Under the pieces are notes generated by a model. That model made no database searches and was not told the origin of the DNA. It saw nothing but the letters and a program-made list of their open reading frames with translations. A DNA stretch of 64,000 nucleotides from IMG/VR virus record IMGVR_UViG_3300008262_000001; one strand, given 5' to 3'. A program made the position numbers and the translations under genes. The stretch is from a virus. Its lineage: Duplodnaviria > Caudoviricetes. Below, piece by piece: positions 386 to 27,750 of the stretch. Within the stretch, counting starts at the first letter, position 1. Every line of letters starts with the position of its first letter.

Positions 386-394
386 TTATATATC
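386..394 (-). promoter_or_regulatory. GATATATAA motif (putative late promoter) overlapping the IntN stop, upstream of the endonuclease ORF
   Basis: Plus strand TTATATATC at 386-394; the same motif recurs before many genes. Confidence 0.6.
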
Positions 395-1108
395 AATATC
401 TATAGATAAAATTTTATCAGTATCTAAATTTATTTCGGAAGGCTTAATGTGAATTTTTTTATCATCTCTAAAAACAGTTACTGAATGGTCATTAGTAACT
501 ATAACCTCCTTACCAGATTCCGTAGTTATTTTCCACTTAGGTTTTCTAACTTTATGACGTATTATTTTTTTAATTCCTGAATATTCTATTTTTTCGTTCT
601 TATAATTAGCAGATGAAAATCCTTTGGTTTCTATAATATGATTACCCTTATGATCTACGAAGATCTCCTCGTATTCTGCCAAATTATTAAAAAAATCCTC
701 TATCAAAATCTCCTTTTTTTCTCCTATGTCGTTCATTATCAATAATTTAGACCCAGAAAAAACCGAATCAGTGTCACCGTAGCAAACCATGTCTAGAGTT
801 ATTTTTCTTGCATTTCTGACCTCCATTTTTTCATGAAGCTCAGTGTCAAGATGCCATATCTCATTAAAGTACCTATTGACTATTTTCTCTGCAAATTTCC
901 AAATGTCCTGACCTTGCAAAGTAACACTTTCCGCCACATCTGGATTAAACAACGAGAAGTACTGGTTTCCTAATGCTCCATAGATACTATTGAGCGTAAG
1001 CTTAACTGCTTGTTCTTCGTTATAAAAATCAGATGACTGCTTTTGTAGGGCCTTCAGCTTGTCATTCAACTCTTCTAGCGAGAGTGATTCGTAGTCTTCC
1101 TCTTTCAT
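386..1108 (-). CDS. polB: Family B DNA polymerase middle fragment (fingers helix, motifs B and C) fused to the N-half of a split intein
   Basis: KLTLNSIYG (motif B) and YGDTD (motif C), then SVFSGS... with TNDH (intein block B). The ORF stops after about 126 intein residues with no block F/G. Confidence 0.92.
   Translation of the reverse strand: MKEEDYESLSLEELNDKLKALQKQSSDFYNEEQAVKLTLNSIYGALGNQYFSLFNPDVAESVTLQGQDIWKFAEKIVNRYFNEIWHLDTELHEKMEVRNARKITLDMVCYGDTDSVFSGSKLLIMNDIGEKKEILIEDFFNNLAEYEEIFVDHKGNHIIETKGFSSANYKNEKIEYSGIKKIIRHKVRKPKWKITTESGKEVIVTNDHSVTVFRDDKKIHIKPSEINLDTDKILSIDIDI
389..766 (-). mobile_element. Split intein N-fragment (Ser1) at the PolB YGDTD|S site
   Basis: Starts at Ser115 (TCG 764-766). 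Block A SVFSGSKLL, block B VIVTNDHSV, no C-terminal HN. Confidence 0.85.
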
Positions 1109-1109
1109 T

Positions 1110-1877
1110 TTAAACTTCTACTAAACCTATTGCTATTACTGAATCTGACTGGGTTGATTTAACAAGAATTCTATTTTCGTGAAAATGTATTTCTGACGAT
1201 TCTTGATCAATATAAGAAAACTGGTTCTTGTAAATGGTATAAACACTTGGATTACTAAATCCATTAGGAGTAGATCCTTTGATAATCTGATATTGGAAAG
1301 AATTACCTCTGACAGTTACTCCTGATTCGTGTACATCAAAATGCAAAAGTTCCTCTGAATTTGATTCTATTCCTGTTAAGGATGAGAGTTTTTGGAATGA
1401 CTCGCTTGTGATGGCAAAGTTAATTTCAGATCCCTCTGTAGAGTGTATTTGCCTTTGAATGTTATCATCTATGTAAGCTAAAAGACTTATGTCTGCACAT
1501 TTGATAAAGATATTCAAAGACGAAGAAGAAAACTTTAAGCTCGTAGCAATTAAATCCTTTTCATAAGGTTGGGATTCAATGATTAGGTTGAGTTCTTCTT
1601 CTGGTCCAAAATATTTGAATACGTCAATGAGTTTTCCTATTTCAAGAATTCCTATTTTTAATCTATTAGGAGGTAAATCACCTTCCAATATTTCATTCAG
1701 ATCAACACTGACATATTTAATAACAGATTTATCAGGAGTTCTTACCTTTGCAAAAACATTGCTTCCTTCAATTTCAAGAGGTACACTTTTGTCTACCAAT
1801 TTAAGCTTTTTAAGGAAAGAGATAAAATTAGTAGAGTTTACTATTCTAAAATTCCAGGTTTGTGTTTTTTTACTCAT
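1110..1877 (-). CDS. Probable sliding clamp (gp45/PCNA-like)
   Basis: 255 aa alternating beta/alpha pattern with a PCNA-like N-terminus (FISFLKKLKLVD...IEG..VFAKVRTPD.SVIKY). Lies immediately upstream of the polymerase fragment. Confidence 0.65.
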   Translation of the reverse strand: MSKKTQTWNFRIVNSTNFISFLKKLKLVDKSVPLEIEGSNVFAKVRTPDKSVIKYVSVDLNEILEGDLPPNRLKIGILEIGKLIDVFKYFGPEEELNLIIESQPYEKDLIATSLKFSSSSLNIFIKCADISLLAYIDDNIQRQIHSTEGSEINFAITSESFQKLSSLTGIESNSEELLHFDVHESGVTVRGNSFQYQIIKGSTPNGFSNPSVYTIYKNQFSYIDQESSEIHFHENRILVKSTQSDSVIAIGLVEV

Positions 1878-3189
1878 TTTCTATATTTGTTTCTAATTCT
1901 TGATCCATTTGTGGGTCAATTTCATTTTCAGGATCCCAAATTCTTATTCCGTTATGGAATTCCTCTTTTGTTTCACTCATGAGTGATGTTGTTCTAGAGG
2001 ATTTTTTGGATATTCTCTTGTGTTCTTTCTCTATGTTCAAAACCTTCGATTTTTGAGTTTTGATTTCGAGATTCTTGTTCTTTATATCGGATTTACAAGA
2101 ATTAATTTCCTGCTTTGTTTTTTCTATTTCATCTTTTGTCAATTTAGTCAATGAAATAGATTCAAGCCTTCTTGATATCTCTTTCTTGAAAGGAGCTAAG
2201 AAATCCAGTACTTCTTGTGCTGCTCTCTTTTTTTCCGACATAAAAAGTAGGAATTTTAATTTAGCTTCCAAGAAATCTAATTCGTCCTGAAGATAGACTA
2301 AATCTCTTTCAAACCTTTTTAAAACAGTTTGCTCCTTGTGAACTATAAAGTCTTCCAAATAGTCTTCAATTGAATCATATTCAAGGACGTTTCCGTCCTT
2401 TACAAAAACTATATTTTCAGTTACTATCTGTTTAGTTTCTTTAAGTAGAACTTCACAAACATTTTTAAATTCCTGGTCTGTACATCTAAACTTGATACTG
2501 ATCTTAACTTCCTCTGTTGAAAAATTATCTATTTTGTAATTTAAACCAGTCTTTTCTAAAGCTAAATTCAATCTAGTAAAGAAAGATTCATATCTCTGCA
2601 ATGGTGAAATAGAATCTATTTTAAATGTCCTAGAATTTAAGTCAATTTCTGTCTCTCCTTCAATAAGCCAAGCAGACTTCAGTGAATCAACCCTTGTGAT
2701 TTTACCCTTAAAACCTCTGAAGTATGGCTTGAGTTTTTTGGTCTTATTTCCATCTAAATAGGTAATTAGTTCATCTGGCTTTCTTGGAAGAATATTCGAT
2801 TTGTATCCCACTGCAATTCCCACAATATGTGTGGACAATCCTATAGGATAATCAACATGAATCCAATCAAATCCACCTTCTTCGTTTGGTTGATTTAGAT
2901 CTTTGTATTTTTCAATTATGTCTTTGTACTTGGATGATATTTTAACTTGAGTATACCTTGGGGCTGATGGGGAAGGATTAACTGGGGTTCCAAAAAATCC
3001 ATCACCTAAAAGAATCTGATCAGAACAACCAAAAGGTCTAGCTAATTTGCAAATTGCCTGTGAAAGAGAAGAATTATGACAAACTATTTTGGAATCACCA
3101 ATAATAAAATTATGATAATTTTCAACGGTAATATCATAGAACTTTTCTGGTGAATCTAATTTGATTCTGTTTATTTTTTTAATTTTCAT
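1870..3189 (-). CDS. Split intein C-fragment fused to the C-terminal part of a type II topoisomerase GyrA/ParC/gp52-like subunit
   Basis: First 39 aa are MKIKKINRIKLDSPEKFYDITVENYHNFIIGDSKIVCHN (blocks F/G), followed by +1 Ser. The extein holds GFFG...SAPRYT with the catalytic Tyr. Confidence 0.93.
   Translation of the reverse strand: MKIKKINRIKLDSPEKFYDITVENYHNFIIGDSKIVCHNSSLSQAICKLARPFGCSDQILLGDGFFGTPVNPSPSAPRYTQVKISSKYKDIIEKYKDLNQPNEEGGFDWIHVDYPIGLSTHIVGIAVGYKSNILPRKPDELITYLDGNKTKKLKPYFRGFKGKITRVDSLKSAWLIEGETEIDLNSRTFKIDSISPLQRYESFFTRLNLALEKTGLNYKIDNFSTEEVKISIKFRCTDQEFKNVCEVLLKETKQIVTENIVFVKDGNVLEYDSIEDYLEDFIVHKEQTVLKRFERDLVYLQDELDFLEAKLKFLLFMSEKKRAAQEVLDFLAPFKKEISRRLESISLTKLTKDEIEKTKQEINSCKSDIKNKNLEIKTQKSKVLNIEKEHKRISKKSSRTTSLMSETKEEFHNGIRIWDPENEIDPQMDQELETNIENE
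3073..3189 (-). mobile_element. Split intein C-fragment (39 aa, basic)
   Basis: YDITVENYHNF (block F) and VCHN|S (block G); Lys-rich N-terminus. Confidence 0.92.
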
Positions 3190-4055
3190 TTTTTATAAAC
3201 TATTCTATCAAATTCCTGTATTTCTTTTATTAATTCGCTTATTTCTACTGAACAACTACTATTCTTCTTTGCATTATCGCTGAAATTAATAATCTCTAAA
3301 TTACAGATGTGCCCTATAATTTCTGGAGAGATGTTGTGTTTGAATCCAAAACATCTCGAATACCTGTGATCAATGGTTAACCATTCAGACTGTTGGAGTT
3401 TTCTGGATTCGGTAATTTTTTCCCAAATATCATCACCAAATTTTATTTTAGCATATCTTCTCATTTGACTCCATGTGATGTTGTGAACATTCTCATCATA
3501 AATACTTTTTAAGTCCATCATTTCTTTAGGTGCCCAAAATCCATTCTTTTCCGCAGTAGCCCTTTTTTTGTTTTTAATTTGGTCAACCTTCGAAGGATTA
3601 GTATATCCATATTTTTGTATCCATGTTTCTTTTAATTTATACAAAACATCATTTCTAGCAAAAACATTATCAACGCCATATTTTTGATTCAAAGATTCTA
3701 CCATATTTTTTCTAGCAATCGAGTCTCTTGATAGATTATGATTTGATCCTGTCGATAAAAATGTGCTTTGTTTTTTCATGATTAATGAGCAAGATTCAGA
3801 GCAGCACATACTAAATTTTTCATATTCCTTTTCACATATAAAGCATTTATTTTTATACCTATCTTTATAGCTTTTGAGTGAATTATAAAATTCAGGATAT
3901 TTCTCATAATTTTTTTTCCAAACTTTAAATGGTTTTCCTGTACTTTGTATTTCAAAAAATTTATCCTGTGACTTACACTTTGTGTTGCAATACTTATTAA
4001 GATTTAGCTCGGATTCAAAATCTTTCCCGCAATTCTTACATTTTTTTATCATCAT
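3186..4055 (-). CDS. Free-standing homing endonuclease (HNH/His-Me-like) between the two intein halves
   Basis: Two Cys-rich zinc-finger-like units, KYGVDN/KYGYTN repeats and C-terminal TIDHRYS...NLEII...N.KKN. Its stop overlaps the IntC start as ATGA. Confidence 0.8.
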   Translation of the reverse strand: MMIKKCKNCGKDFESELNLNKYCNTKCKSQDKFFEIQSTGKPFKVWKKNYEKYPEFYNSLKSYKDRYKNKCFICEKEYEKFSMCCSESCSLIMKKQSTFLSTGSNHNLSRDSIARKNMVESLNQKYGVDNVFARNDVLYKLKETWIQKYGYTNPSKVDQIKNKKRATAEKNGFWAPKEMMDLKSIYDENVHNITWSQMRRYAKIKFGDDIWEKITESRKLQQSEWLTIDHRYSRCFGFKHNISPEIIGHICNLEIINFSDNAKKNSSCSVEISELIKEIQEFDRIVYKK

Positions 4056-4602
4056 GGATTTTTACTTTTATATATCCAACGTGATGGTAGAAATCTTTTA
4101 TATCCATTCCTTCCTCAAGATCTTCAGCCTTAATCCATTTTGAATCAACATAAAAGGGATGATTTTTAGTACACTTAATAACCTCACCGGTTTCTAATTC
4201 AATCTCAATTAATTCGTTGGTAATTTGACCGATCCTTGGAGAATGTCCAATCCCGAAAGTTTTTTCACCAGTTTCAGTATCGATACAAGAAACCAATAAA
4301 TCACATTCTGGATTTTTATTATACCAGTCTTCTATTGTAATTTGGTTACCATCTGCTAATTCTATTTTTGTATCCCCTGCAACGCAGTCTCCGTGGTGGT
4401 ATAGCCCTGTCCCAAAAACTTCCCCTATGACGCCAACAGTCTTTTTAAAAGCACCTGGAGAATTTTGTAAAATCAATCTTTGGACTGGAGTTAAGCAATC
4501 GTAGAAATTAGGGATTCCTCTGCTTTGGATAACATAAAGAGCATATTTTCTATAGTCATTATCAATCTGTTCAGAGATAGTTAATGTTTTTTTTGTTTCC
4601 AT
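4036..4602 (-). CDS. Type II topoisomerase GyrA/gp52-like N-terminal 72 aa fused to a split intein N-fragment
   Basis: YALYVIQSRGIP..YDCLTPVQR...YHHGD, then CVAGDTKI (block A) and CTKNHPF (block B); the ORF then ends. Confidence 0.93.
   Translation of the reverse strand: METKKTLTISEQIDNDYRKYALYVIQSRGIPNFYDCLTPVQRLILQNSPGAFKKTVGVIGEVFGTGLYHHGDCVAGDTKIELADGNQITIEDWYNKNPECDLLVSCIDTETGEKTFGIGHSPRIGQITNELIEIELETGEVIKCTKNHPFYVDSKWIKAEDLEEGMDIKDFYHHVGYIKVKIHDDKKM
4039..4386 (-). mobile_element. Split intein N-fragment (Cys1, acidic) at the HHGD|S site
   Basis: Cys73 = TGC at 4384-4386; acidic composition complements the basic IntC. Confidence 0.9.
4068..4076 (-). promoter_or_regulatory. GATATATAA motif 12 nt upstream of the endonuclease ATG, embedded in the IntN coding 3' end
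   Basis: Plus strand TTATATATC at 4068-4076; ATG at 4055. Confidence 0.6.
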
Positions 4603-4653
4603 ATAAAGGGATCAATTTAAACATCTTACCCTCCGAAACCGATTTAATTTCAT

Positions 4654-4677
4654 AAAAAAAGCCCCTTTGGGCTTTTT
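4654..4677 (-). terminator. Rho-independent terminator after the 526-aa gene
   Basis: AAAAAGCCC-AAAG-GGGCTTTTTTT hairpin with T tract on the minus strand. Confidence 0.8.
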
Positions 4678-4683
4678 AAGTTT

Positions 4684-6264
4684 TTATTCTAAGGCTTTAG
4701 TGTTCCTAAATTTGAGTTGTTCTAATTCATCCGAATCGAGAAAAGAATCTAAATCTGACCAAATATTTGATCCGTATTTTTTCTCTAATTTTTTCCAATC
4801 GTCATCAGACTTAATAACACTATTGTACCTTTTGATTGTTTCTTCTTCGTCCGAGTTGTATTTGTCCTTTTCCTCTTGTATGAATTTAGCTAATCCAGCA
4901 ATTTGTCCAGAATTATCTACAATTTCTGAATCTTCGTCACCAGTAGTATCAGTTGTAGTTTCTGTTGATTCTGCCCCAGTTACTCCTTCCTCTCCTGTTG
5001 TTGCAGCAAGAGCAACTTGTTCGGGGCTAATTCCGTTCATAGCGTCTTGTAATACCTTTTCATCGATATCATCAAGTTGAATAAGAGCATAAATGAATTT
5101 ACCTGCATTCATTTGTTCCCTCTCAGCTTTAGAGATAAAGTCTTTGTATTCATCATAGTCTGCAAAAACTTGACATCCAGCAGAGTAAGGGCCAACACAT
5201 ACACCAACACCTTTTGTGGAAGATCTATGGATTTGCATTCCACAGTCCTCAACAAAAACCTCTGCAGGTTTGTATGTTTCGTATCTAGTGACTCCTACTG
5301 GATATCTACCGACTTTGATTTTTTCCCCCTCCACCATCATCTTATATTTCTCATCACCTATTGACGAATCTTTTAAATAGTAGATGGTGTCTCCTGGGAT
5401 TTTGATTCCTGTACCCTTCGGATTTAATGGCTTTTTACCGTAAAATGCTAAACTTGGTACTGTTGTTATTTGGTAAGGAACAAATTTATCACCTAAGTTG
5501 ACATTAGTTGCAGTTGATCCTGCACCCAAAAAAGTAGCACCAGTTGTGCCAGTAGCAGCTGCTGTGGCTGCTCCTGTTACACCTTCAGTTTCACTTATGG
5601 AAAGTTTAGGCAGTGATAGATCCTTAGTGTTGTTAAAAGGATCTTTGTCACTCTCGTTCATTTTGGAAAATAGTTCGAAAGAAAGTACTTTTGATTCTTT
5701 CGGTCCTGTAGATGCAGTAGTATTTAGAGCAACTGGTGCACCAGTTGCTCCTGTTGCTCCAGCCGTAATATCACCTCCATCATCTGCATTTCCAGAAATG
5801 AAATACAAAGCATCAGTAAATCTGTCCTGATTAGCAGAATCTTTTTTGACATTTAATCTGTTTCTGATACCAATAATAACAGCTCTTTTTTCATCAAGCT
5901 CCTTTATTGCTCTAGAATACTCTCCAGCATTTTTATCCTCTAAATGTTTTAAAAGGATCTTAAAGGTTTTAACCGAAATTGGGGTTCTTTCCAATTTGAA
6001 CGGCTCACTGGCGCCACATCCTTTATAAGGTCTTGACTCCTTAACCTCCGGTGTTATTTCAATTGATGAATCAACTGAACCTGTTAATCCTTGGACTCCA
6101 CCAAATAGACCTTTTACTAAATCAGCTGCAATTCTTGATTTTGTTTCTCTTTCAGTTTCTGGTCTTCCTGTTCCACTATCATCAGTTGTGGTGGTAGATC
6201 CAGTTACACCAAAGGTGTCTTCATTTAAGAAATATTCATTGAAGGACAGTACAGATTTCTTCAT
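4684..6264 (-). CDS. Putative peptidoglycan-acting enzyme (YkuD/L,D-transpeptidase-like motif) with GAT repeats and a capsid-targeting-like N-terminus
   Basis: IH-X14-SAGCQVF resembles the YkuD H-X14-17-S/T-x-G-C motif. GATGATGA repeats; N-terminus MKKSVLSFNEYFLNE; GATATATA at 6270-6277. Confidence 0.55.
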   Translation of the reverse strand: MKKSVLSFNEYFLNEDTFGVTGSTTTTDDSGTGRPETERETKSRIAADLVKGLFGGVQGLTGSVDSSIEITPEVKESRPYKGCGASEPFKLERTPISVKTFKILLKHLEDKNAGEYSRAIKELDEKRAVIIGIRNRLNVKKDSANQDRFTDALYFISGNADDGGDITAGATGATGAPVALNTTASTGPKESKVLSFELFSKMNESDKDPFNNTKDLSLPKLSISETEGVTGAATAAATGTTGATFLGAGSTATNVNLGDKFVPYQITTVPSLAFYGKKPLNPKGTGIKIPGDTIYYLKDSSIGDEKYKMMVEGEKIKVGRYPVGVTRYETYKPAEVFVEDCGMQIHRSSTKGVGVCVGPYSAGCQVFADYDEYKDFISKAEREQMNAGKFIYALIQLDDIDEKVLQDAMNGISPEQVALAATTGEEGVTGAESTETTTDTTGDEDSEIVDNSGQIAGLAKFIQEEKDKYNSDEEETIKRYNSVIKSDDDWKKLEKKYGSNIWSDLDSFLDSDELEQLKFRNTKALE

Positions 6265-6277
6265 AAATCTATATATC

Positions 6278-6604
6278 CTATTTGCTTTTCTTAATAATCA
6301 GGGATAAAAACGCAGCTAAAAAAGAAACAAGACCTGATCCGATGAATGAATATAATATTGGGTCTAATGATAATTGAAAATTATGCAAGGAGATTCTGGG
6401 ACTAAGTTCCTGTAATCCAGGCAATGCAAAATATAAAATCATAGATGTCCAAAAAGAAAAGCATTGGTAGCAATCCAAAAGATATCCAAAAAACTCGGAT
6501 TTAATTGTGACCCAATCTCTGAAATTTTGAAGGATTTTAGAAGCAACAACTATGTGAGTAAAACCCCAAACACTAAGTAGATAAAAAAAGAAAATGGATG
6601 TCAT
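6278..6604 (-). CDS. Small multi-pass membrane protein (DUF1360-like)
   Basis: Three hydrophobic segments and a CxxC..FW motif ([11 protein letters not shown]). Confidence 0.55.
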
Positions 6605-7632
6605 TGGAATATTTCGTTGTCTTTAAGTTCTAGTAAAAATTGTTTTTGCTCTTCAGTTAAGTTTTCAGGGATTTTCACATTAAGTTCAATCAAGAAATCT
6701 CCAATATTTCCAAATCCCATATTTGGGATTCCCTTTTGACTGAATCTAAGTACTGTTCCAGGAATTGTTCCAGGATCAACTACTGCCTTTAACTTTTCCC
6801 CGTTAGGCATTTCAACATCAATATTAGTTCCCAATGAAGCGTCAATAAAGCTGATGGTTCTTGAACTAATTAAATCTATTCCTCTACGAACAAAAGAATG
6901 GTCTTGAATCTCCTTCACTTTAATAAAAAGATCCCCGTTTCTTCCATTACCTTTACACTCGTTACCTTTACCTTCAACTACAAATTGCATCCCATCAGAA
7001 GCACCTGCAGGAATTTTTATGTCAACAATATCTTCAGTATCCTTTAGTCCAGACCCAAAGCACGTGTGGCAATTTTCTAAAACTACCCTTCCCGATCCTG
7101 AGCACGATGGACATGTTTGAACTGAATTTACCTGAACAAAACCATTAGTCTTATTAATGGTAATGAATCCAGATCCTGAGCATTGACCACAAGATATAAA
7201 AGAGGTAGAGTCATAAGCCCCAGTTCCTTGACAAGGTGAACATTTTTTACTTCTTTTTATTTTGATTTTCTTTTCAATTCCATTGAGGATTTCATTTAAT
7301 CCTATTTGAAGATTGATATTAAGAGAAGTTCCTTTTGTAAAATTCTGAGGGTTACCTCCAAATGGACCACTAGTAAATGGATTTCCCCAGTTGAATCCAT
7401 TGAACATATCCTGCAATGGATTTCCACCTTTTCTTGAAAAGTCGTACCTTTTTCTTCTCTCAGGGTCACTTAGATTCTCGTATGCTTCAGATATCTTTTT
7501 GAAATTCTCCTCAGCACCCTGTTCCTTGTTTCTATCTGGGTGGAATTTTTTAGCTAAATCTCGGTAAGCTTTTTTGATTTGATCATTGTCAGCTGTTTCA
7601 GGAACTCCTAATATTTGATAATAATCACTCAT
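6601..7632 (-). CDS. dnaJ: DnaJ/Hsp40 co-chaperone
   Basis: J domain with HPD, G/F region, four CxxCxGxG repeats and a C-terminal DnaJ domain. Confidence 0.97.
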
Positions 7633-7766
7633 TTTTTAGATTTGAAAAAAGAAGAAATTTTTCCTAGGATCCGGTTAATCTCCAATAAGAGGACTACGAA
7701 ACAAAGAAAGATAAAAGCTAGAATGCCTCCAACTACAAAGAAAACATAAGAAAATAATTTTCTCAT
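7629..7766 (-). CDS. 45-aa single-TM protein (not in the ORF track)
   Basis: [45 protein letters not shown]; fills the gap exactly and overlaps the dnaJ start as ATGA. Confidence 0.5.
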
Positions 7767-7767
7767 G

Positions 7768-7980
7768 TTAGGCTTCAGGATATTTCTGCATTAAGTAGTT
7801 AAGAAAACTTTGAAGTTTCTCTTTATCCAGTAAATCCTCAAAAACTAAATTCAAATTACCAAGATCCTCCTTGATCTTACAATTAGGAAAATTTTCCTCA
7901 ATTGATTCCTGAATTGAGACTAAGTAAATTTCGTTCTCTGGGATTATTCTAGAGTTGGTTAAATCGAGTTCGTCTGACAT
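7768..7980 (-). CDS. Hypothetical protein
   Basis: 70-aa ORF in the operon context. Confidence 0.55.
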   Translation of the reverse strand: MSDELDLTNSRIIPENEIYLVSIQESIEENFPNCKIKEDLGNLNLVFEDLLDKEKLQSFLNYLMQKYPEA

Positions 7981-8002
7981 TATTAATTTTCTTTATATTA
8001 TT

Positions 8003-8803
8003 TTATATTCCGATATATGTAAAAATTTCTCCGTCAACCAAGCATATTTTTATTGGCTTGATGTTTTTGGAGATATGTTTTAGTTTTTGTAATTGCTTAG
8101 GATTGGATTTTTCATTCTTGCTGTAACTGGATTTTCCCATTAAAACATCATAGGTGAAGGTAGATTTTACTTCAACGTAGAAATCTTCAAATTCAAAATC
8201 TGGTGTATATGTACCATATTTTGTTTTAATTGAAGATGTAGGTTTTTTTGGAAGATCTAAATTATTTTCGATAAGAATCTCTATATATTTTTTCTCCGCT
8301 GTTCCGTAACATTTTAATCCACCAACTAGAAATTCTTTACATCTTCCTGGGCCATTATGGTAGCTCCCGTTATTTTTCTCTATCCTTGAATTAACCTGTT
8401 TTTGTTTAATCTCTTTTGCATCTTCCCTTTTTGACCAATTTTTATCTGATAATTTTTTCCTTAACTCATCTTTAAATATTGAATCCTTCCATCTTTCCCT
8501 AGTTGTCTCAGAGCATAATTTTTTCCACTGCTCTTTTTCATCATCAGATTTTCTTTCATATAGCTTCTTATTAGTATTTGATATTTTTTCGTTTATTATA
8601 TTTTTTTCAGCATCGGACAATTCCGAAAGATATTTCTTCCTAGAATTTGAGGCTTTAATTCTAAGTTCGTCGTTTTCCCAAATTTTTGATACAGCGCATT
8701 TTTTACACAATGAACCTTTTCTTTCAGCTCTTTTCAAAAAATACAAACCCGAATAAGTTATTTCACTGTTACAAGAGGGACAATTTCTTCTGATTTTTTC
8801 CAT
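8003..8803 (-). CDS. Free-standing homing endonuclease, PD-(D/E)xK type, with an N-terminal zinc finger
   Basis: CPSC...CKKC, basic helical repeats and C-terminal YTPDFEFEDFYVEVKS. Confidence 0.75.
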   Translation of the reverse strand: MEKIRRNCPSCNSEITYSGLYFLKRAERKGSLCKKCAVSKIWENDELRIKASNSRKKYLSELSDAEKNIINEKISNTNKKLYERKSDDEKEQWKKLCSETTRERWKDSIFKDELRKKLSDKNWSKREDAKEIKQKQVNSRIEKNNGSYHNGPGRCKEFLVGGLKCYGTAEKKYIEILIENNLDLPKKPTSSIKTKYGTYTPDFEFEDFYVEVKSTFTYDVLMGKSSYSKNEKSNPKQLQKLKHISKNIKPIKICLVDGEIFTYIGI

Positions 8804-8844
8804 ATGGTATCTATCAGAAATTATCTTTTAATTTACCATCAAAT

Positions 8845-9759: not shown

Positions 9760-9772
9760 AGTACAAAAATAA

Positions 9773-10522: not shown

Positions 10523-10547
10523 TTAACTATATATCTTTTTTTCAAAT

Positions 10548-12518: not shown

Positions 12519-12899
12519 TTAAAAGTGCCTGTAAATCAAGCCTTCATTGATATTATTCCTTTTGCAAGTTCCTCCCAAAAGTTCCACCACAGTATCAGCA
12601 GAATCACAACTGTATTTTAAACAATCATCAGATAAGCAGGGCTCACAGTTGTGATAAATTTTTTTGACTTTACCCTTTTCTATAAAAAGAATATCTAATG
12701 GAATTTCACAATCTTTCATGTGAAATGATCTATTTGCATTGGCCCCAAAATTAAAAAGCATCCCCTCATTATCGAGGAGATGCTTTCTGTTGGATAGGCC
12801 TTGGGGAAAGTCTTTACATTCTTCTAAAACAAAAGTGTGTTCCCCTATTTTTACTAAATGGAAATCTAAAACTTTATTATCTTCTTGAGAATTTATCAT
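12519..12899 (-). CDS. DUF192-family protein
   Basis: GLSNR..L...EGMLF.F...FHMKDCEIPLDILFI...VVEL.GG. Confidence 0.8.
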   Translation of the reverse strand: MINSQEDNKVLDFHLVKIGEHTFVLEECKDFPQGLSNRKHLLDNEGMLFNFGANANRSFHMKDCEIPLDILFIEKGKVKKIYHNCEPCLSDDCLKYSCDSADTVVELLGGTCKRNNINEGLIYRHF

Positions 12900-13378
12900 T
12901 TGATAAAAACTTCATCAACATTATCAGGATCGATTTCTATTACTACGTTTTTATTCTTCATTGAGTATGGAATTCCAAGAATTACTCCCTTTACCATATC
13001 AACTTCTTTGACTATAAATTCAGAATCTACAAAAATGTTTGATTCCATATCTTCGTCTTCATCTTCAAATCTATCTGCAAATTCATCACCTTCTTCAGGC
13101 TCTACTTCAGTTGGCTTAGCTCTCATGCCCATTTCTGCATAAAGATCTTTTATGTATTGTGGTGCATTTTTACCTTGAGAAGGAATTTCTGCAATGAGAG
13201 TAACTTCTTCTAAGTCCCCAGTCATTACTTGCCCTAATAGATCCTGAAGTTCTGGAAGAAGTCTATTTCTTTTTATAGTTCTTTCTGAATTGAAATCTGT
13301 ACCTCTATATAAAGGAATTCCTGACTCATTGATTGAGTTTGATTCATTTACAAATTGTATAAATCTTAAGATTTGCAT
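12896..13378 (-). CDS. Hypothetical acidic protein with a capsid-targeting-like N-terminus (start revised to MQILRFIQFVNES)
   Basis: GATATATAA at 13395-13403 lies between the track start and the ATG at 13378. Confidence 0.7.
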   Translation of the reverse strand: MQILRFIQFVNESNSINESGIPLYRGTDFNSERTIKRNRLLPELQDLLGQVMTGDLEEVTLIAEIPSQGKNAPQYIKDLYAEMGMRAKPTEVEPEEGDEFADRFEDEDEDMESNIFVDSEFIVKEVDMVKGVILGIPYSMKNKNVVIEIDPDNVDEVFIK

Positions 13379-13403
13379 TTTATAACTTTTTGAGTTATAT
13401 ATC

Positions 13404-14618
13404 TCAAGATTCAACTGGTTCTGCTACTTCTGCTGGTTGAGGGGTTAAAGACTTCGAATAGAACTCCATATTTTTAGCAATTCTATCCTTCTCGTTTTGA
13501 GGAAGAGCAGCATAAATAGGACTGTTCATAATGACAGCTGTTGTTTTGTATGCCTCTTCAGCGTTTCCATTATAAAATGCTAAAACAGAATATTCATCGG
13601 GCATTCTCCATCTCCAAATGTCATCTTCTACAAATAGGATGTCAGAGCAAGGTCCAGTTTTCATACCAATTGAAGAGAGAGCAAAAGCAAGAGCATATCT
13701 CTTCTTAACACCTAAGAATTTGATCAAGTGATATAAGGCTTCAAGTCTATTAGGACGGTATTCCCAAGCTGAAAGGTAGGCGTCGATGACTTCTGCATCC
13801 GGTGCTTCGATACCTTGCTTTTGTCTTGCTATCCAATATTTAGAAATATAAACTTCTTCGTTCCAGCCACCTAGATCAACTCTTCTTTGGTATGCCTCAA
13901 TGGATCTGTCTGCCATTCCTGCATCTCTATAACTTTGAGCCATGTAGAAAACATATCTTCTCTCAAGGTCCATAGGCATGTTTTCTTTTGGTGTGGTTAC
14001 CAAGGCCTTTTCAAAAATCAAAGCATCATTATAATATTTGTCTTTGCCCTTGATATCTCTGTTGTGTCCAGAAACTGAAGCGTGCATTTCAACACCTTCC
14101 AAAAAGTCCTCTTCAAGTTGTACACCCTCTGGACCTGAAATGTATTCGTGTAGAACTCCGACGTATTTCCAATCTTGATCTCCTCTTACTATTTGAGTTC
14201 TGTAATAGGCTAAAGAGTTAAGTCTGATTTTAACCTTGTAGCAATCCTTTGTAAGATTTTCAAAAGGTGATTTAGTATCATCAACCACTAAAACATCATC
14301 AGCATCAATTACCAAACGATAATCGGCTTTTCCTTTTGAATAGGCAAGACTTTCTGTTCTATTGTGACCATAATCTACCCAAGGTCTTTCATGAAGTTCC
14401 CCAGGAATCCCACATTCTTTCATGTAGTCTTTGATGATGTCCTGAGTTCCATCTGTAGATCCAGTGTCTACTATTACCCAATGATTGATGTGGGCTTTAA
14501 CTGAATCTATACATCTTTTAATAACTTGTGATTCATTTTTTACTATCATCACAAGACAAACTGAGGGCTTCTTTTTAGGTTCCTCCATTACTCCATCTTC
14601 TGTTTTTTTACGGCTCAT
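13404..14618 (-). CDS. Family 2 glycosyltransferase with a C-terminal TPR region
   Basis: CLVMIVKNE, VDTGSTDGT, IDAD, HE motif and helical TPR-like repeats. Confidence 0.88.
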   Translation of the reverse strand: MSRKKTEDGVMEEPKKKPSVCLVMIVKNESQVIKRCIDSVKAHINHWVIVDTGSTDGTQDIIKDYMKECGIPGELHERPWVDYGHNRTESLAYSKGKADYRLVIDADDVLVVDDTKSPFENLTKDCYKVKIRLNSLAYYRTQIVRGDQDWKYVGVLHEYISGPEGVQLEEDFLEGVEMHASVSGHNRDIKGKDKYYNDALIFEKALVTTPKENMPMDLERRYVFYMAQSYRDAGMADRSIEAYQRRVDLGGWNEEVYISKYWIARQKQGIEAPDAEVIDAYLSAWEYRPNRLEALYHLIKFLGVKKRYALAFALSSIGMKTGPCSDILFVEDDIWRWRMPDEYSVLAFYNGNAEEAYKTTAVIMNSPIYAALPQNEKDRIAKNMEFYSKSLTPQPAEVAEPVES

Positions 14619-14666
14619 AATTTTTTATTTTAATTTTGATCTTAGACTTTATACGGGGAAAGCTAA

Positions 14667-15260
14667 TTAAATTTCATTCAAACGATCAAAAATATCATCT
14701 GTTATGTGTTCCAATTCTTGTGTTCCGTCTATTTTATAGAAGGATTTAGATTTTCTCATGGATTTTATCATAGGAGATGTTTTTTCTTGATACTCATCCA
14801 TTCTTTTTTGGAAAGCTTTAGGATCAGCATCATCTGCTCTGCCTGAAGTTTTAGATCTTTCTTTGATTCTAGCTTGTAAAGTCTCCTCAGGAACTTCTAA
14901 ATAGAATATATTTACTATTTCCAGTCCATGATCCTCACAGATTTTTTCAAAGAATTTCTTCTGATCCAAGTTTCTTGGATAGCCATCGAAAATGAATCCA
15001 CTTGAATCTTGATTAGAACTTATAAATTTGCTAAGCTCTTCTGCAACAATATCATCTGGAAGTAATTCCCCGGTCTTCATCATGCTTTTAATTTTGGAAC
15101 TTTGAGAATCTCTCAATATTTCACCAGTTGAAACATGTAAGTATCCGGTTTTATTTGATAAAATTTCGGACTGAGTTCCTTTACCACACCCAGGAGGTCC
15201 AACAAACAAAATGCACGGTTTAGACTTCCCGGAAAATTCACCGAATTTTTTAATCTTCAT
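14667..15260 (-). CDS. adk: Adenylate kinase (short LID)
   Basis: GPPGCGKGTQS, HVSTG, FDGYPR, SGRADD. Confidence 0.93.
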   Translation of the reverse strand: MKIKKFGEFSGKSKPCILFVGPPGCGKGTQSEILSNKTGYLHVSTGEILRDSQSSKIKSMMKTGELLPDDIVAEELSKFISSNQDSSGFIFDGYPRNLDQKKFFEKICEDHGLEIVNIFYLEVPEETLQARIKERSKTSGRADDADPKAFQKRMDEYQEKTSPMIKSMRKSKSFYKIDGTQELEHITDDIFDRLNEI

Positions 15261-15275
15261 ACCAATAATTATTTC

Positions 15276-17648
15276 TTAAGATCCACAAGCAATACAATCA
15301 TCAGGATTATCAATACTGCAAGTTAAATCACTTAAATTTTCTTCTTCAGTTTTGATCTGAACTTCTTGTACTTTAGACATATCAATTCCTAAACCTTTAA
15401 TAGCTGTGGTAGCTGCTTTAGTCCTGATATAATAACTTCCAGTTTTTAAACCTGCACTCCAAGAATAAAAATGTGCTGAAGATAGCTTAGCGAAATTAGC
15501 ATCTTGTACAAACAAGTTCATGCTCTGACTTTGACAAATAAATGGTGCTCTAGCTGCAGCATGGTCGATTATAATTTTTTGACTCATCTCCCAAGCTGTT
15601 TTATAAATAGCTTTGATATCACTTGGTATTTCATCTATGTCCTGAACAGATCCGTTGTTAATGATAATTTTGTCCCTAAGGTTATCATTCCAAAGACCAA
15701 GCTTAACAAGATCCTTCACTAAGTGTTTATTAACTACTGGAAATTCTCCCGACAGGGTTTTTCTTATATAAATGTTAGAAGTGAATGGTTCAAAACATTC
15801 GGTATTGCCTAAGATTTGACTTGTTGATGCTGTTGGCATTGGAGCAAGAAGTAAAGAATTTCTAGCTCCGCTCTTTAGGATTTTAGATCTAAGAGTTTCC
15901 CAATCCCAACGATCTGATGGTGTTTGACCCCAAAGATCGAATTGGAAATTACCTTCTGACAATGGTGATCCTGGGAAAGATTCGTATGCACCTTCTGTTT
16001 GGGCAAGGTCAGCAGAAGCTTCCATTGCTCCATAATAAATTGTTTCGAAAATTTCTCTATCTAATTGTTTGGCTTCTTCAGAGTCAAAGGCTATTTTCAT
16101 AATAGCAAAAGTGTCTGCTAATCCTTGAACTCCTATTCCTATGGGTCTATGTCTTAAATTAGATTTCTTAGTCTCTCTGGTAGGATAATAATTTACATCT
16201 ATAACCCTATTTAAATTAAATGTAACAGTGTAGGCTATATCTTTAAGAGCGTTAAAATCATACTTTGGTTTTTTGCCAGGAATAATAAATTTAGGAAGAG
16301 CTATCGATGCAAGATTACAAACTGCTGTTTCTTCAGAATTAGAATATTCAATAATTTCAGTACATAAATTCGAGGATTTAATGGTACCTAAATTCTTTTG
16401 ATTTGATTTCTGGTTAGCAGCATCCTTATAAAGCATATATGGAACTCCAGTTTCTATCTGAGCTTCTATAATCTTATACCAAAGATCCTGAGCTTTAAAA
16501 GTTTTTCTTCCCTTGCCTTCTGATTCATATCTAGTATAAAGCTTTTTGAAATCGTCACCATAAACATCAGATAAGCCAGGAGCTTCATCTGGAGAAAATA
16601 ACGTCCAATCACTGTTTTCTTTAACCCTCTCCATGAATAAGTCTGGAATCCATAAAGCTAAAAATAAATCTCTTGCTCTTAATTCCTCTTTACCGTGATT
16701 TTTTCTCAAATTCAAAAAATCTTCAACATCACAGTGCCATGGTTCTAGGTACACTGCGAAAGACCCCTTTCTACGCCCGCCTCCTTGGTCAACATACCTA
16801 GCAGTTTCATTAAAGACTTTAAGCATTGGGATTATCCCATTAGAATTTCCGTTTGTTCCTTTGATATAAGAACCTGTTCCTCTAATGTCATGAATATGAA
16901 GTCCAATTCCTCCAGCATTTTTAGATATCTGAGCAACATCTGAAAGTGTTTTATAAATTCCCTGAATTGAATCCTCGTGCATGGAGATTAAAAAACAAGA
17001 AGATAATTGGGGTCTTCTAGTTCCAGAATTGAAAAGAGTAGGGGTAGCGTGTGTGAAAAATCCTTGACTCATTAAGTCATAAGTTTTGAATGCTGATGCT
17101 AAATCTTCTTTGTGGATTCCGATAGCAACTCTCATTATCATTTGTTGAGGTCTTTCAGCTGGAAGTCCGTCTATTTTTAAAAGATAAGATTTCTCAAGAG
17201 TTTTAAAACCAAAATAATCATAGTCCAAATCTCTATCAGTTATAATCTGTGAGTCAATAGCTTGTGAGTTGTCCATAATTATTTTATAGACATCATCCGC
17301 TATCATAGGAGCTTTATTTCCTGTTTTTGGATCCACATAACTATAAAGCTGCTCTATAACCTGAGAAAAACTTTTAGGCGTTCTTTTATGAAGGGAAGTA
17401 ATGGAAATTCTTGCAGCTAAAATGGAATAATCAGGATGTGTAGGAGTTAAAGCTGCAGCTGTTTCTGCTGCTAAGACGTCTAATTCAACGGAAGATATTC
17501 CATCATATAAACCGTGTATTACTTTTTTTGCAATCTCCATTGGCTCGATATAGTCCATATTCAAACCATAGCATTGCTTTTTAACACGATTTAAGATCTT
17601 ATCTAATTTTACTTTTTCCTTAGATCCATTTCTTTTAATTACTTCCAT
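15276..17648 (-). CDS. nrdA: Class Ia ribonucleotide reductase alpha subunit
   Basis: ATP cone, [24 protein letters not shown] and C-terminal CIACGS; uninterrupted. Confidence 0.98.
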
Positions 17649-17720
17649 TCTTTATACTTTATTTTTGTTTTATCGACTTTTTTCCTACAGTTTCTAAATT
17701 CATTAAAAAATAAATCAGAA

Positions 17721-18335
17721 TTACTGGATTTGTAAAACGTTCACGAAGAAAGATCCAGTACTAATGTTGATTGTTCCGGAAGATCTGTTGGTAAATCTCA
17801 CTTCGACTAAATCGCCTGCAGTAAAACCACAGAAGCAAGTCCAGGAAGCTTTTTCATAAGAGACATCAAAGATAAGTTTTGGAACAACGCTCGAGTTAAC
17901 AATCAGAGAGATCCTGACTGGATCATAGGCATTTCCTGGACTATTGATTGTCATCACAAAATTGGCAGAAACTGTAATCATATACATACCAGTATTACCA
18001 ATAGTAAGCGAAGCATTGGTCGCTCCAAAAACACCATTAACACCCGTGATACCATTTACATTTCCAACCCTACCGGTTGTCCAAGTTTGATTAGCACCGG
18101 GTGTCAAAGAAGAGCTGAATGCACCAGTGGAAGCATTGGAGAATAATTCTCCGTAGTTCCCGCCAAGAAAAGGGCCAGTTGCTCCGGTAGCTCCAGTTGC
18201 ACCTGTAGCTCCTTCGACTGATCCATTATCGGAAAGATTCCAAAAACTGTCTATAAGATCGGAAAAATCATCCTGGGAAACAATATTTCCTTGCGCAAAT
18301 AATTGTTTTAGCTGGGTTCTGGTTTTCTGAGACAC
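17721..18335 (-). CDS. Short collagen-repeat fibre/decoration-like protein
   Basis: N-terminal LKQLFAQG...QDDFSDLIDSFW, GATGATGATGATGP repeat and a beta-rich C-terminal domain; GATATATA at 18351-18358; GTG start. Confidence 0.6.
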   Translation of the reverse strand: MSQKTRTQLKQLFAQGNIVSQDDFSDLIDSFWNLSDNGSVEGATGATGATGATGPFLGGNYGELFSNASTGAFSSSLTPGANQTWTTGRVGNVNGITGVNGVFGATNASLTIGNTGMYMITVSANFVMTINSPGNAYDPVRISLIVNSSVVPKLIFDVSYEKASWTCFCGFTAGDLVEVRFTNRSSGTINISTGSFFVNVLQIQ

Positions 18336-18381
18336 TCGTTTGCTTTTATTTATATATCGAAAGAGGTCTCAGATTGACAAA

Positions 18382-19362
18382 TTAGAAATCAGCATTCATT
18401 GTGAATTCCTTCGTGCTTTGTGTGCCTTCTTTTGTACTATCCATTACTCCATTTTTCTGATATGATCCCACTCTACCTTCAAAGAAATTGCCTTTGTTTT
18501 CTAAAGCAATGTTGGTCATGAAATCAAATGGACATTTGGTATTCCAAATCTTAGAAAGACCCAAAGAAACAAGCAATCTATCAGCTACAAATTCAATATA
18601 TTGGCTCATCAAATCTGAATTCATTCCTATCAGTCTAACAGGAAGAGAAGATGTGATGAATTCCTTTTCAATTTCAACAGCCTCAGAGATAATTTGTTTT
18701 ACTTTGTCTTCTGAAAGTTTATTTTGAACATGGTCTGTGTACAATAGACATGCAAAATCACAATGAAGACCCTCGTCCCTAGAGATTAACTCGTTTGAGA
18801 AACAAAGTCCCGGCATTAGTCCTCTTTTCTTAAGCCAGAATATAGAACAGAATGAACCGGAAAAGAATATTCCTTCTACTGCAGCAAAAGCAATTAGCTT
18901 TTCTACAAAAGAACCTTTCTCTATCCATTTAAAAGCCCAATCTGCTTTTTTCTTAACTGAAGGTACTGTTTCAATAGCATTAAAGAGATGTTCTTTTTCT
19001 TGCTTGTCAGTGATATAAGTGTCAATCAACAGAGAATAGGTTTCTCCGTGTATATTTTCCATCATCAACTGAAAACCATAAAAACATCTTGCTTCAGGGT
19101 ATTGAACCTGGTTGAAGAAATTAGCTGCTAAGTTTTCATTTACGATTCCATCTGAATTATTAAAGAATGCTAGAACGTGCTTGATAAAGTATCTCTCATT
19201 ATCATTTAGTTTATCTCTCCAATGAGCAACATCTTGAGCAAGGTCAATCTCTTCTGCTGTCCAGAAACTAGCTTCAGCAGTTTTGTACATTTTCCATAAA
19301 TCATGATGTTGAACAGGTAATAATGAGAATCTTTGAGGATTCAATTCTAGTATTTTTTCCAT
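18382..19362 (-). CDS. nrdB: Class Ia ribonucleotide reductase beta subunit
   Basis: [30 protein letters not shown]. Confidence 0.98.
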
Positions 19363-19449
19363 GAAATCTTATTTAGTTTATATATTGAAATGTGTTGATA
19401 ATGCCCCCCGGTTAGTAGAAAAATTTCACATCAAAAGGCAAAATAATTT

Positions 19450-19926
19450 TTAGTAACCTCTTTGCTGTCTATCTCTATTTTCTTTGTTCTTACTCATGTA
19501 CATATTGTACATTTCTTGAGGAGTCATACCAACAGAAATAGCATAGTTCATGAAGAAATGGAGCATATCTATGATCTCGAATTTGCACTCCAATTGATCT
19601 TCCGGAGATAAATCAGAGAATTTTTTATCAGAATAGCTTGTGTATGCTTTTTTCCACTTTTTCCATATTGCGCTTCCTCCAGAACTGATTCCTCCTAGAG
19701 CATCAGTTGCTTCATGAATTTCATCGATCATTGCGTGTGTGTTCATAGACCAGAACTCCATAACTTCCCGAAGGGACATTTTTTCAAAGTCATATCCGTA
19801 CACATTTTTTTGTGTGTCTGCCTGTAAATTCAAGATATCACCAAGAGTGTCTTGGTTAACACCAGATCTTTCAGCCCATAGGTTTTCAATTTCTAATTTA
19901 GCGCAAGTATTATCTGTGTTTGCCAT
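19450..19926 (-). CDS. Dimeric all-alpha dCTPase/dUTPase (T4 gp56-like)
   Basis: DEIHEA, FEIIDMLHF and C-terminal Y..KNKEN..RQ.RGY. Confidence 0.8.
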   Translation of the reverse strand: MANTDNTCAKLEIENLWAERSGVNQDTLGDILNLQADTQKNVYGYDFEKMSLREVMEFWSMNTHAMIDEIHEATDALGGISSGGSAIWKKWKKAYTSYSDKKFSDLSPEDQLECKFEIIDMLHFFMNYAISVGMTPQEMYNMYMSKNKENRDRQQRGY

Positions 19927-19927
19927 T

Positions 19928-21334
19928 TTATGATTTTTGTTTAATTAATTTTTTAATTTTTTCTATTTCTTTTTCGCACTCGAAATATTTCTTCTTTGTT
20001 GATTTCCTTTGGTTGTAGAGTCCTTGGAGAATTTCTCTTAGAACTGGTTCTTTACCCTCTTTAGAAAAGAAAACTGCTCCTGATGAGGTTTTGATAGCTC
20101 CCTCCGGGATATTTTGTAGATTCTTTCCCAAATAAATTTCAGGAGATATTCCCCATTGAATCATAGTGTTGGGATAAAGAGAAGCAAAGTCAAAGCATGC
20201 AATCCATTCGTATAAACCCTTGTCTGGCTTTTTAACATATGCACCTTCAAACTTTACGTGTGATTCTTCCTTCTTTTCCGATACAATTACCTTTTTCCTT
20301 TCCAGAAATTTTCTCAACATGAGTACTTCGGTAGTCCAAACGGGAGAAAGGGCTCGACTTATTTCCACTCTACTTACTCCAGCTATTTTAAAAAATGTTG
20401 AAAGAGTATCAAGTCTTTGATCGATATAGTGGACAAGAGCACAGTCAACTGCGTTGTAAAAAATAAACGTTTCAAAATCTGATTCATAAAGATCTTTTAA
20501 TGAACCCTGGTAGTGAATCTTTTTAATTCCAATTGCTTGGGTTGCAACGTAATCCAAAGAGTTTGATTCTCTGATCTTAATGACCCTGTCCCACTTTTTA
20601 TAGATCTCAAGGTAGTCGACCATTAGAATGTGCTGAGGAACTTGGTTTTTACCAAGCAAAACAGAACTAGGTGAACAGATTTTTGGATCAATACCTAACC
20701 TTTTACATCGATTGATTATGTAAGGCCAGTCATATCCAAACCAGTTCCATCCAGTAATCAAAGGCATTTTTGGGACTAGCTTTGACAGGAAAGTGTAAAG
20801 CATGTCAAATTCAGATTCGAATTTCCTGTAGTTGAAAGTCCAATCCCCTTTTTGACCGTTAAAGTGGTCTTTGATTCTTTTTTCGATAGTAAGGATCCTG
20901 TCTGGGCTCATGTCCTCAAGTCCCATGACCAAAATTTTTCCATGCGACGAAGCCATACCAACTGATAGGATTCTATTTTTAGCATTCTCTGTGTCTAATG
21001 AATCCGCCCGATTATCTGTGATTTCAACCTCAATATCCACAAAGTACTTCTTGGGAGTTTGGTAATCCCAAAAAGGTTTTGTGACCTGGGGGTCAAAAGA
21101 TTCCAGGATCTCCATTATTCTAAGTCGATCCAATTTATATGTTCCGTGTTTCTTAACTGGATATCCGTCCCATGATTCCCATTCTTTATCTCTGTTTTTA
21201 TCTGATGCAGAAGTTTTTTGCCAAACGAACTGCTGGGATTTTGGAATTGGTATTTTAATGATGTTAACTTCTCCTTCTTCTGTGTAGTGCGAAACGGAAA
21301 GGGAAGATCCTGAACTTTCAATATCAATGATCAT
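19928..21334 (-). CDS. polB: Family B DNA polymerase N-terminal subunit (3'-5' exonuclease, motif A, first fingers helix)
   Basis: FVDIE (ExoI), GWNWFGYDWPY (ExoII), YNAVD (ExoIII), FDFASLYP (motif A). Ends after RKSTKKKY without motifs B/C. Confidence 0.93.
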   Translation of the reverse strand: MIIDIESSGSSLSVSHYTEEGEVNIIKIPIPKSQQFVWQKTSASDKNRDKEWESWDGYPVKKHGTYKLDRLRIMEILESFDPQVTKPFWDYQTPKKYFVDIEVEITDNRADSLDTENAKNRILSVGMASSHGKILVMGLEDMSPDRILTIEKRIKDHFNGQKGDWTFNYRKFESEFDMLYTFLSKLVPKMPLITGWNWFGYDWPYIINRCKRLGIDPKICSPSSVLLGKNQVPQHILMVDYLEIYKKWDRVIKIRESNSLDYVATQAIGIKKIHYQGSLKDLYESDFETFIFYNAVDCALVHYIDQRLDTLSTFFKIAGVSRVEISRALSPVWTTEVLMLRKFLERKKVIVSEKKEESHVKFEGAYVKKPDKGLYEWIACFDFASLYPNTMIQWGISPEIYLGKNLQNIPEGAIKTSSGAVFFSKEGKEPVLREILQGLYNQRKSTKKKYFECEKEIEKIKKLIKQKS

Positions 21335-27719: not shown

Positions 27720-27750
27720 CTATTGTTTTTTATTTATTGTATATATCTTT

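Follow-up and report, generated by a model that had tools for sequence, protein, structure and literature searches.

The subject of this analysis is the replicative family-B DNA polymerase (PolB) of a huge tailed freshwater phage (Duplodnaviria; Caudoviricetes) represented by IMG/VR record IMGVR_UViG_3300008262_000001. The stretch of 64,000 nucleotides (nt) which was analysed is called the window in the following, and all coordinates refer to it unless a contig is named. The minus strand of positions 1-21334 forms one tightly packed block of co-directional genes. Near its two ends lie two genes for parts of the polymerase, piece A (P0001, 19928-21334, minus strand, 468 amino acids) and piece B1 (P0002, 386-1108, minus strand, 240 amino acids). 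Both open reading frames (ORFs) are found, with the sequences quoted for them, where an earlier reading of the letters alone (the sequence-only reading) had placed them. The same reading had proposed a PolB of at least three polypeptides, and translations and Pfam matches bear out three primary ones, A, B1 and B2. The third polypeptide does exist, but its place had to be corrected, as B2 is located outside the window at L003:11869-12852.

Piece A comprises the N-terminal and the 3'-5' exonuclease domains, palm motif A and the first helix of the fingers, and it ends with a lysine-rich helical tail of 24 amino acids (...RKSTKKKYFECEKEIEKIKKLIKQKS) and a stop codon. This assignment is based on translation, Pfam and an alignment with RB69 and T4 gp43. 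The motifs Exo I (FVDIEVE, D100/E102), Exo II (N197/D202), Exo III (YNAVD, Y293/D297) and motif A (DFASLYPN, D382-N389, with D382) can all be recognized, and their residues are invariant in 18 genomes at 56-87% identity. Two Pfam profiles are matched above their cut-offs, PF03104 and PF00136, the latter at model positions 16-147. In comparison with solved structures, residues 169-404 resemble RB69 gp43 188-433 (E=1e-27), and the match to T4 gp43 extends to residue 501. A megablast search with the piece A region against the phage collection gave no match, so that the phage seems to have no close cultured or deposited relative.

The B1 frame consists of an extein of 114 amino acids (residues 1-114; 767-1108, minus strand) and the N-terminal half of a split intein (residues 115-240 and the stop codon; 386-766, minus strand). 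The extein, which was delimited by translation, PF00136, RB69 gp43 and alleles with an empty insertion site, starts with an acidic helical head (MKEEDYESLSLEELNDKLKALQKQ...) and continues through the second fingers helix, motif B (KLTLNSIYG), palm strands and motif C up to YGDTD. P0002 covers positions 142-257 of PF00136, also matches Intein_splicing, and aligns with its residues 4-132 to RB69 gp43 528-640; residues K36, N40, Y43, G44, D112, T113 and D114 are invariant in the same 18 genomes. The N-intein of 126 amino acids matches PF14890, begins with Ser1 (SVFSGSKLL...) and contains a block B reading VTNDH. Its nearest solved structure is 9hth (E=1.5e-9), whose chain sequence, as aligned, is that of the N-intein of phage Aes508. 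The identity to the N-inteins of phages PTm1 and Aes508 is 48% and 45%, respectively.

Between the two intein halves sits a free-standing endonuclease gene of 380 amino acids, which starts 18 nt past the stop of B1 and overlaps the start of B2 by 16 nt. Only its 5' part, 122 of the 380 codons, is included in the window (2-367, minus strand), and the gene continues past the left edge. Homologues are Aes508_035 (E=4e-40), PTm1 gp240 (E=6e-30) and an ORF of Lak-B5 (E=1e-66), all of which hold the same position between intein halves. A Pfam scan assigned the endonuclease to no significant family, the sole PHROG family matched is one of unknown function, and the Vsr label goes back to the depositors' annotation of PTm1 gp240 ('VSR endonuclease') and Aes508_035. 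In phage LR756500 (contig L012, 11589-12572) a homologue of this endonuclease (E=2e-15) stands free between A and B1, and the spacer between B1 and B2 holds other content.

Piece B2 (P0005, 327 amino acids) was identified by translation and homology just beyond the left edge of the window, on contig L003, which matches the window at 100% identity over 11,108 nt. A tblastn search with the B2 pieces of PTm1 and Aes508 found no third PolB piece inside the window. P0005 starts with a C-intein of 52 amino acids (residues 1-52, ending ...NNILVHN), followed by Ser+1 and 275 amino acids which represent the end of the palm and the thumb. The C-intein covers positions 119-155 of PF14890 and has a relative of solved structure in the PolB16 cysteine-less intein (8cpn/8cpo). 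The extein matches PTm1 gp241 (E=2e-35), Aes508 43B-2 (E=1e-13) and cyanophage DNA polymerases (E=7e-26). Its assignment as a polymerase part follows from this homology to annotated polymerases together with the fused B frames of relatives, which reach PF00136 position 451.

In 17 out of 20 related phages B is encoded in a single frame of 380-391 amino acids, which lacks the intein and reads YGDTDSNYINLGAV, exactly the predicted spliced product. The closest intein-free relatives read YGDTDSNYINLGAVMDSCE, and this sequence is also obtained when the C-extein of the window, beginning SNYINLGAVMDSCE..., is joined to the N-extein ending ...YGDTD. All 17 relatives read ...YGDTDSNY... without an insert, and five of them have the exact extein letters of the window on both sides. 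These natural empty-site alleles fix the intein boundaries, and the split intein by which the second polymerase half had been said to be interrupted is thereby located between YGDTD and S (YGDTD/S). All marks of a class 1 cysteine-less split intein are present (Ser1, TNDH, the terminal HN and Ser+1, with PF14890 on both halves). The cassette occurs in three of the 20 relatives examined in the clade of the window, a patchy spread which fits a mobile cassette of intein and endonuclease that entered some members of the clade. The B1-endonuclease-B2 layout is a case of the 'fractured gene' described by Dassa et al. 2009 (cited in PMC6892783), in which a free-standing homing endonuclease gene lies between the two halves of a split intein; the window shows no essential difference from it.

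The break between A and B1 is of another kind. P0001 and P0002 abut on the PF00136 profile, and when aligned together with T4 gp43, piece A terminates at the position of residue 505, within the variable loop of the fingers tip. Five other split lineages end opposite T4 gp43 residues 507-516, which gives an overall range of 505-516. No intein match was found by Pfam at the C-terminus of A or the N-terminus of B1, and the stop codon of A and the ATG of B are conserved in every relative. The sequence-only reading had described just this, a break at the fingers tip without an intein; in the alignments A reaches to about T4 residue 505 and B1 resumes at RB69 528. In LR756504, B is one frame of 409 amino acids without an intein, and the fingers split is therefore independent of the intein. 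The two genes had been estimated to lie about 19 kilobases (kb) and 20 genes apart; the measured gap is 18,819 nt, with 21 minus-strand ORFs of at least 60 amino acids. The design supported by these data is a putative three-gene replicative PolB, in which one break would be left without a covalent link and the other would be closed by a split intein.

The intervening block of 21 co-directional ORFs (1110-19926, minus strand) was annotated from the ORF list, Pfam matches on identical contigs and PHROG. It includes genes for a MazG/dUTPase-like protein, the small and large subunits of ribonucleotide reductase, an adenylate-kinase-like protein, a glycosyltransferase and a DUF192 protein, and further a Toprim topoisomerase subunit, UvdE, DnaJ, a fractured topoisomerase II (topo II) large subunit and several unknowns. 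The MazG/dUTPase-like nucleoside triphosphate pyrophosphohydrolase (19450-19926, minus strand) starts 1 nt past the stop of piece A. In phage PAU a dUTPase gene likewise comes directly after piece A, and this adjacency may be conserved between the window and PAU.

Because the window is a metagenomic assembly, the 19-kb separation could have been created by a chimeric or misjoined contig while the pieces are truly adjacent, and a chimera between 1108 and 19928 is what the sequence-only reading had warned of. However, the layout is repeated in separate assemblies and runs: A and B1 lie in the same arrangement on a 75-kb NCBI contig and also on a JGI contig of 31 kb, which comes from a slightly divergent strain and shows three mismatches and two small indels. 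Contigs from four further sequencing runs, none of them flagged as a possible source of the window, span all of 1000-20999 without a credible joint, the long pieces listed being nearly without differences. Synteny, another point the sequence-only reading had raised, is conserved beyond this phage. IMG/VR contains at least 80 related loci with 57-88% identity to piece A, and of 34 long related contigs scanned with PF00136, 32 carry both A and B. In all 32 the two genes are 13-22 kb apart on one strand and separated by the same intervening block, and A and B occur together on every contig long enough for both. With diverged relatives of this number sharing the layout, we regard an assembly artefact as practically negligible.

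One could also think of a joining at the nucleic-acid level, by DNA excision or inversion or by RNA trans-splicing, which would give one continuous polymerase. No observation favours this directly, although some of the joints listed in the read data skip 12-17 kb. The sides of these apparent joints, which were rejected, measure only 21-24 letters and fall inside (Gly-Ala-Thr)n repeats of two unrelated genes. These genes encode proteins of 204 amino acids (17721-18335, minus strand) and 526 amino acids (4684-6264, minus strand), with repeats such as GATGATGATGATGP and GATGATGAP, and such repeats draw unrelated metagenomic contigs, which leads to false joints and depth peaks. Against a joining speak also the stop of A and the ATG of B, conserved in every relative, the halves of Lak-A and Lak-C, which are on opposite strands and more than 220 kb apart, and the nature of the intervening genes, which serve replication and nucleotide metabolism and do not form a removable element. 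We therefore consider this explanation extremely improbable.

The replicative family-B DNA polymerase of this phage is thus very probably a two-subunit enzyme from three genes. A, B1 and B2 would be translated separately, B being made first as two precursors, B1 with the N-intein and the C-intein with B2. The intein halves would then bind each other and trans-splice ...YGDTD to SNYINLG..., giving a subunit B of 389 amino acids with the second fingers helix, motifs B and C and the thumb. A and B are expected to associate non-covalently: the tail of A, which is basic, and the acidic B head would together restore the two-helix hairpin of the fingers, and the palm strands of both would pack against each other. 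The 19-kb gap would have no mechanistic role, since every piece is provided with start and stop codons of its own, and would be the product of genome rearrangement in a lineage whose halves have long been independent.

A complex prediction, which the sequence-only reading had suggested, was made for A and the B1 extein and reached a score of 0.81, while the best of three controls reached 0.00. In the calibration the 0.81 mark is reached by 58 out of 80 solved complexes and by two out of 110 mismatched pairs, counts which hold only roughly here as the model used our own alignments. The runs share at least 97% of the contacts, with a predicted local distance difference test value (pLDDT) of the partner of at least 81. 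In the model the tail of A (432-468) runs antiparallel to the head of B (4-46), and palm segments near motifs A and C are in contact. The net charge in the window is +5 for the A tail and -5 for the B head.

Several points weigh against a two-subunit enzyme of this kind. The pass in the complex prediction may reflect likeness to solved unsplit PolBs, as is expected for halves of a known fold. Only the subclade of the window shows a clear charge complementarity between A tail and B head (+3 to +5 versus -3 to -5), which is weak in the group with 57-60% identity; as a general argument for the pairing of tail and head it was therefore dropped. The Pfam scan of P0005 finds only the intein, and PF00136 gives no direct match to the B2 extein. 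The sequences, motifs, boundaries, conservation and synteny were observed directly, and it is from these that we infer the assembly of the subunits and the splicing and polymerase activity in this phage. Finally, the absence of a second polymerase rests, by proxy, on relatives at 57-60% identity.

The last point also leaves some room for the view that the pieces no longer form one polymerase, A being a stand-alone 3'-5' exonuclease or both being decaying remnants, while another enzyme replicates the genome. The exonuclease domain in A is complete and could work alone, and a gene for a translesion polymerase of the Y family (IMS, PF00817) lies just outside the window, about 7 kb past its left edge and downstream of B1; it is encoded on the other strand, close to where the replication block ends (L003:17698-18888). 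However, not only the exonuclease residues but also polymerase motifs A, B and C are invariant over the 18 genomes. A second complete polB, which the sequence-only reading had named as a counter-indication, was not found in complete or near-complete relatives: PF00136 detects no further PolB in the 32 contigs with both genes, and in the nine of these which are rated at least 90% complete (250-435 kb) there is neither a PolA above the cut-off nor a PolIII alpha match. The complete genomes LR756500, Lak-B5 and LR756504 likewise contain no PolB besides the pieces. Together with the joint occurrence of A and B on every contig of sufficient length, this makes loss of function very unlikely in our view, and we keep to the two-subunit polymerase.

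Comparing the distance between A and B across related phages reveals a wide range. The gap is 2.0 kb in PTm1, 2.4 kb in PAU (gp105, gp110), about 3.4 kb in MA9V-2 and about 10.5 kb in LR756500. It amounts to 6-10 kb in Lak-B, where the order is permuted to B1, B2, A, and to 13-22 kb in the clade of the window. In Lak-A and Lak-C it exceeds 220 kb with the halves on opposite strands, and in LR756501, LR756502, LR756504 and LR745206 it reaches 100-280 kb (about 281 kb in LR756504). Taken together, Lak and the megaphages of 630-735 kb have their halves 10 to over 200 kb apart. The wide distance is a property of the lineage and not a trait of a single phage.

Some relatives have an unsplit enzyme. 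P0006 is a protein of 877 amino acids, encoded in one frame with a continuous fingers tip and 41% identical to A over its full length; P0007 and P0009 are also single unsplit proteins. On its contig P0006 follows genes for Toprim, topoisomerase IV (topo IV) and a protein of 247 amino acids, and homologues of these three occur in the window in unchanged order, with piece B alone coming after them. Measured against this common order, piece A is the half out of place. In a maximum-likelihood tree built from the A region (32 rows; P0008 was excluded due to a large insert, and the unsplit state was checked at the DNA level for P0006 only), 16 split and three unsplit sequences fall into one jumbo-phage clade with 100/100 support. 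Five state changes occur in the best tree, and the well-supported branches alone force at least three, so the fingers tip is, on this tree, a recurrent site of breakage or re-fusion. Aes508 lies outside this clade, where unsplit T4 is its partner, and the T4-like split thus arose independently; a single origin of the split shared with T4-like Aeromonas phages is rejected by the tree.

It might be argued that split and dispersal are adaptive, either by allowing separate regulation or stoichiometry of the halves, or by an open fingers tip that can accommodate modified nucleotides. A deep clade has retained the split, even though nested unsplit forms suggest that re-fusion is possible, and an engineered fingers-tip split of Pfu polymerase with a point mutation broadened substrate use (PMC3061061). 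The nucleotide-metabolism and glycosyltransferase genes between the halves would also agree with this idea. However, there is no direct evidence for it; gap (2 kb to more than 200 kb), strand and order vary freely, as in a neutral drift of independent genes, and the tree does not separate re-fusions from repeated splits. We consider adaptation unlikely. On a further reading, one may regard the fingers-tip two-subunit PolB as the standing state of a deep jumbo- and megaphage lineage, comprising the freshwater clade of the window, Lak, the 460-735 kb phages, PAU, PTm1 and MA9V. The halves would then drift from 2 kb to more than 200 kb apart, change strand and order and perhaps be kept apart by selection, which may act via dosage or timing, stand-alone proofreading by A or acceptance of modified nucleotides. 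This picture, with the lineage so composed and selection so acting, appears rather doubtful to us.

With regard to known systems, Petrov et al. (2006, 2010) reportedly found polymerase gene 43 split into gp43A and gp43B in the T4-related Aeromonas and Acinetobacter phages 25, 44RR, 31, 65 and 133. The precedent of closely spaced 43A and 43B genes, mentioned in the sequence-only reading, is found in the literature (PMC3061061, PMC2988022): natural gp43 splits of T4-like phages are at the fingers tip with the genes 2 bp to 3 kb apart (PMC3061061), and in phage 25 the products 43A and 43B co-purify and are active (Petrov 2010, as given in PMC2988022). The window resembles these phages in the break at a variable fingers-tip loop, in two separately translated subunits and in the lack of an intein at the break. 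Unlike theirs, its two polymerase genes are separated by 18.8 kb and 21 genes. When Pfu polymerase was cut in two at the fingers tip, the enzyme reconstituted from the purified fragments behaved as the wild type does (PMC3061061).

The GenBank record of Aes508 shows gp43A, a Seg-like endonuclease, gp43B-1 with an N-intein, a VSR-like ORF and a C-intein with gp43B-2. Aes508 and Aes123 thus share with the window the three polypeptides, the YGDTD/S site and Ser1 with Ser+1. The intein halves of the window are 45% and 56% identical to those of Aes508, and the endonucleases are homologous, as given above. In contrast to the window, all pieces of Aes508 are clustered in about 5 kb. Aes508 further possesses a group I intron and a gene for a GIY-YIG endonuclease, and the polymerase that hosts the intein falls on another branch of PolB. 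The PolB1 intein of Aes123 is a characterised cysteine-less split intein for which trans-splicing has been shown (PMC11923092, PMC10189870).

PTm1, PAU and MA9V are cultured phages (Tenacibaculum phage PTm1, Sphingomonas phage PAU). The GenBank record of PTm1 lists gp236, gp239 ('intein-containing split DNA polymerase precursor'), gp240 and gp241. PTm1 and PAU fall with the window into one jumbo-phage PolB clade, and their polymerases are split in the fingers as in the window. PTm1 also shares the intein cassette including the 'VSR endonuclease' gene, and the intein halves of the window are 45-60% identical to those of PTm1 and Aes508. The gaps in PTm1, PAU and MA9V-2 are far smaller than the 18.8 kb of the window. 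Lak and the 460-735 kb phages (LR756500-504, LR745206) have the same break site and dispersed halves, with a dispersal more extreme than that in the window; LR756500 has the order A, B1, B2 as in the window, and Lak the same intein cassette.

Distant genes for one family-B polymerase are also known from Methanothermobacter, where the genes are 85 kb apart and the palm is split (PMC3061061), in contrast to the fingers in the window. The PolB of Nanoarchaeum equitans contains a naturally split cysteine-less intein (PMC10189870). Both are archaeal cellular enzymes, and neither pairs a non-covalent break with a spliced one. For Lak and the 460-735 kb phages we found no description of dispersed polymerase halves in open-access papers and preprints. 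A literature search on split polymerases of megaphages gave only polymerase genes of Jug phages, which are adjacent and interrupted by an endonuclease, and a PolIII that is split in other jumbo phages. The three-piece design (Aes508, PTm1) and precedents for assembly and splicing are therefore already known. The novelty is modest and consists of the conserved wide dispersal in a large jumbo- and megaphage lineage, the evidence for the displacement of A and the repeated splitting or fusion at one site, none of which was found in open-access papers and preprints, most subscription journals lying outside the search.

A second fractured gene lies 1 kb from B1 (1870-4602, minus strand). It consists of three minus-strand ORFs: one of 188 amino acids (4036-4602) with topo II large-subunit positions 5-92 and the N-part of a Hint domain, one of 289 amino acids (3186-4055) for a homing endonuclease (phrog_3339), and one of 439 amino acids (1870-3189) with a C-intein and topo II positions 80-467. 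An unsplit relative (contig L127) has one topo IV gene of 479 amino acids in place of these fractured pieces. In the co-occurring strain L005 (Ga0226807_1000584) 77 nt are missing compared to window positions 2364-2440, which shortens the C-terminal topo II piece to 413 from 439 amino acids. The strain also lacks 54 nt in the UvdE-like gene (window 9551-9604) and otherwise differs by three mismatches.

The octamer GATATATA occurs in 12 copies where 2.5 are expected, a number reached in none of 100 shuffles. Eleven copies are on the coding strand (387-394, 4069-4076, 6270-6277, 10528-10535, 13396-13403, 18351-18358, 27740-27747, 29573-29580, 33377-33384, 45783-45790 and 58118-58125, all minus strand), most of them no more than about 25 nt ahead of a start codon. 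The octamer precedes both intein-associated endonuclease genes, and neither of the PolB pieces A and B1 has a copy in front of it. It resembles a motif of promoter-like or translation-start function that serves a subset of genes. A scan for sigma-70 promoters stayed at chance level (72 versus 75.9 expected), as did intrinsic terminators (9 versus 9.8), and these scans are therefore uninformative on a co-transcription of A and B.

What this arrangement suggests for phage biology is that the halves of an essential replicase can be scattered and yet conserved, and that the assembly of PolB would be independent of linked or coupled translation. In this group of huge phages a gene called 'DNA polymerase' would be a half or a third of the enzyme, and marker-gene trees, completeness checks and counts of polymerase genes would be wrong unless the pieces are joined. 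The phages with an unsplit enzyme, with halves 2 kb, 19 kb and more than 200 kb apart, and with or without the intein, the cultured PAU, PTm1 and MA9V among them, may serve as a natural series for the assembly of split subunits, a question left open by the T4 literature.

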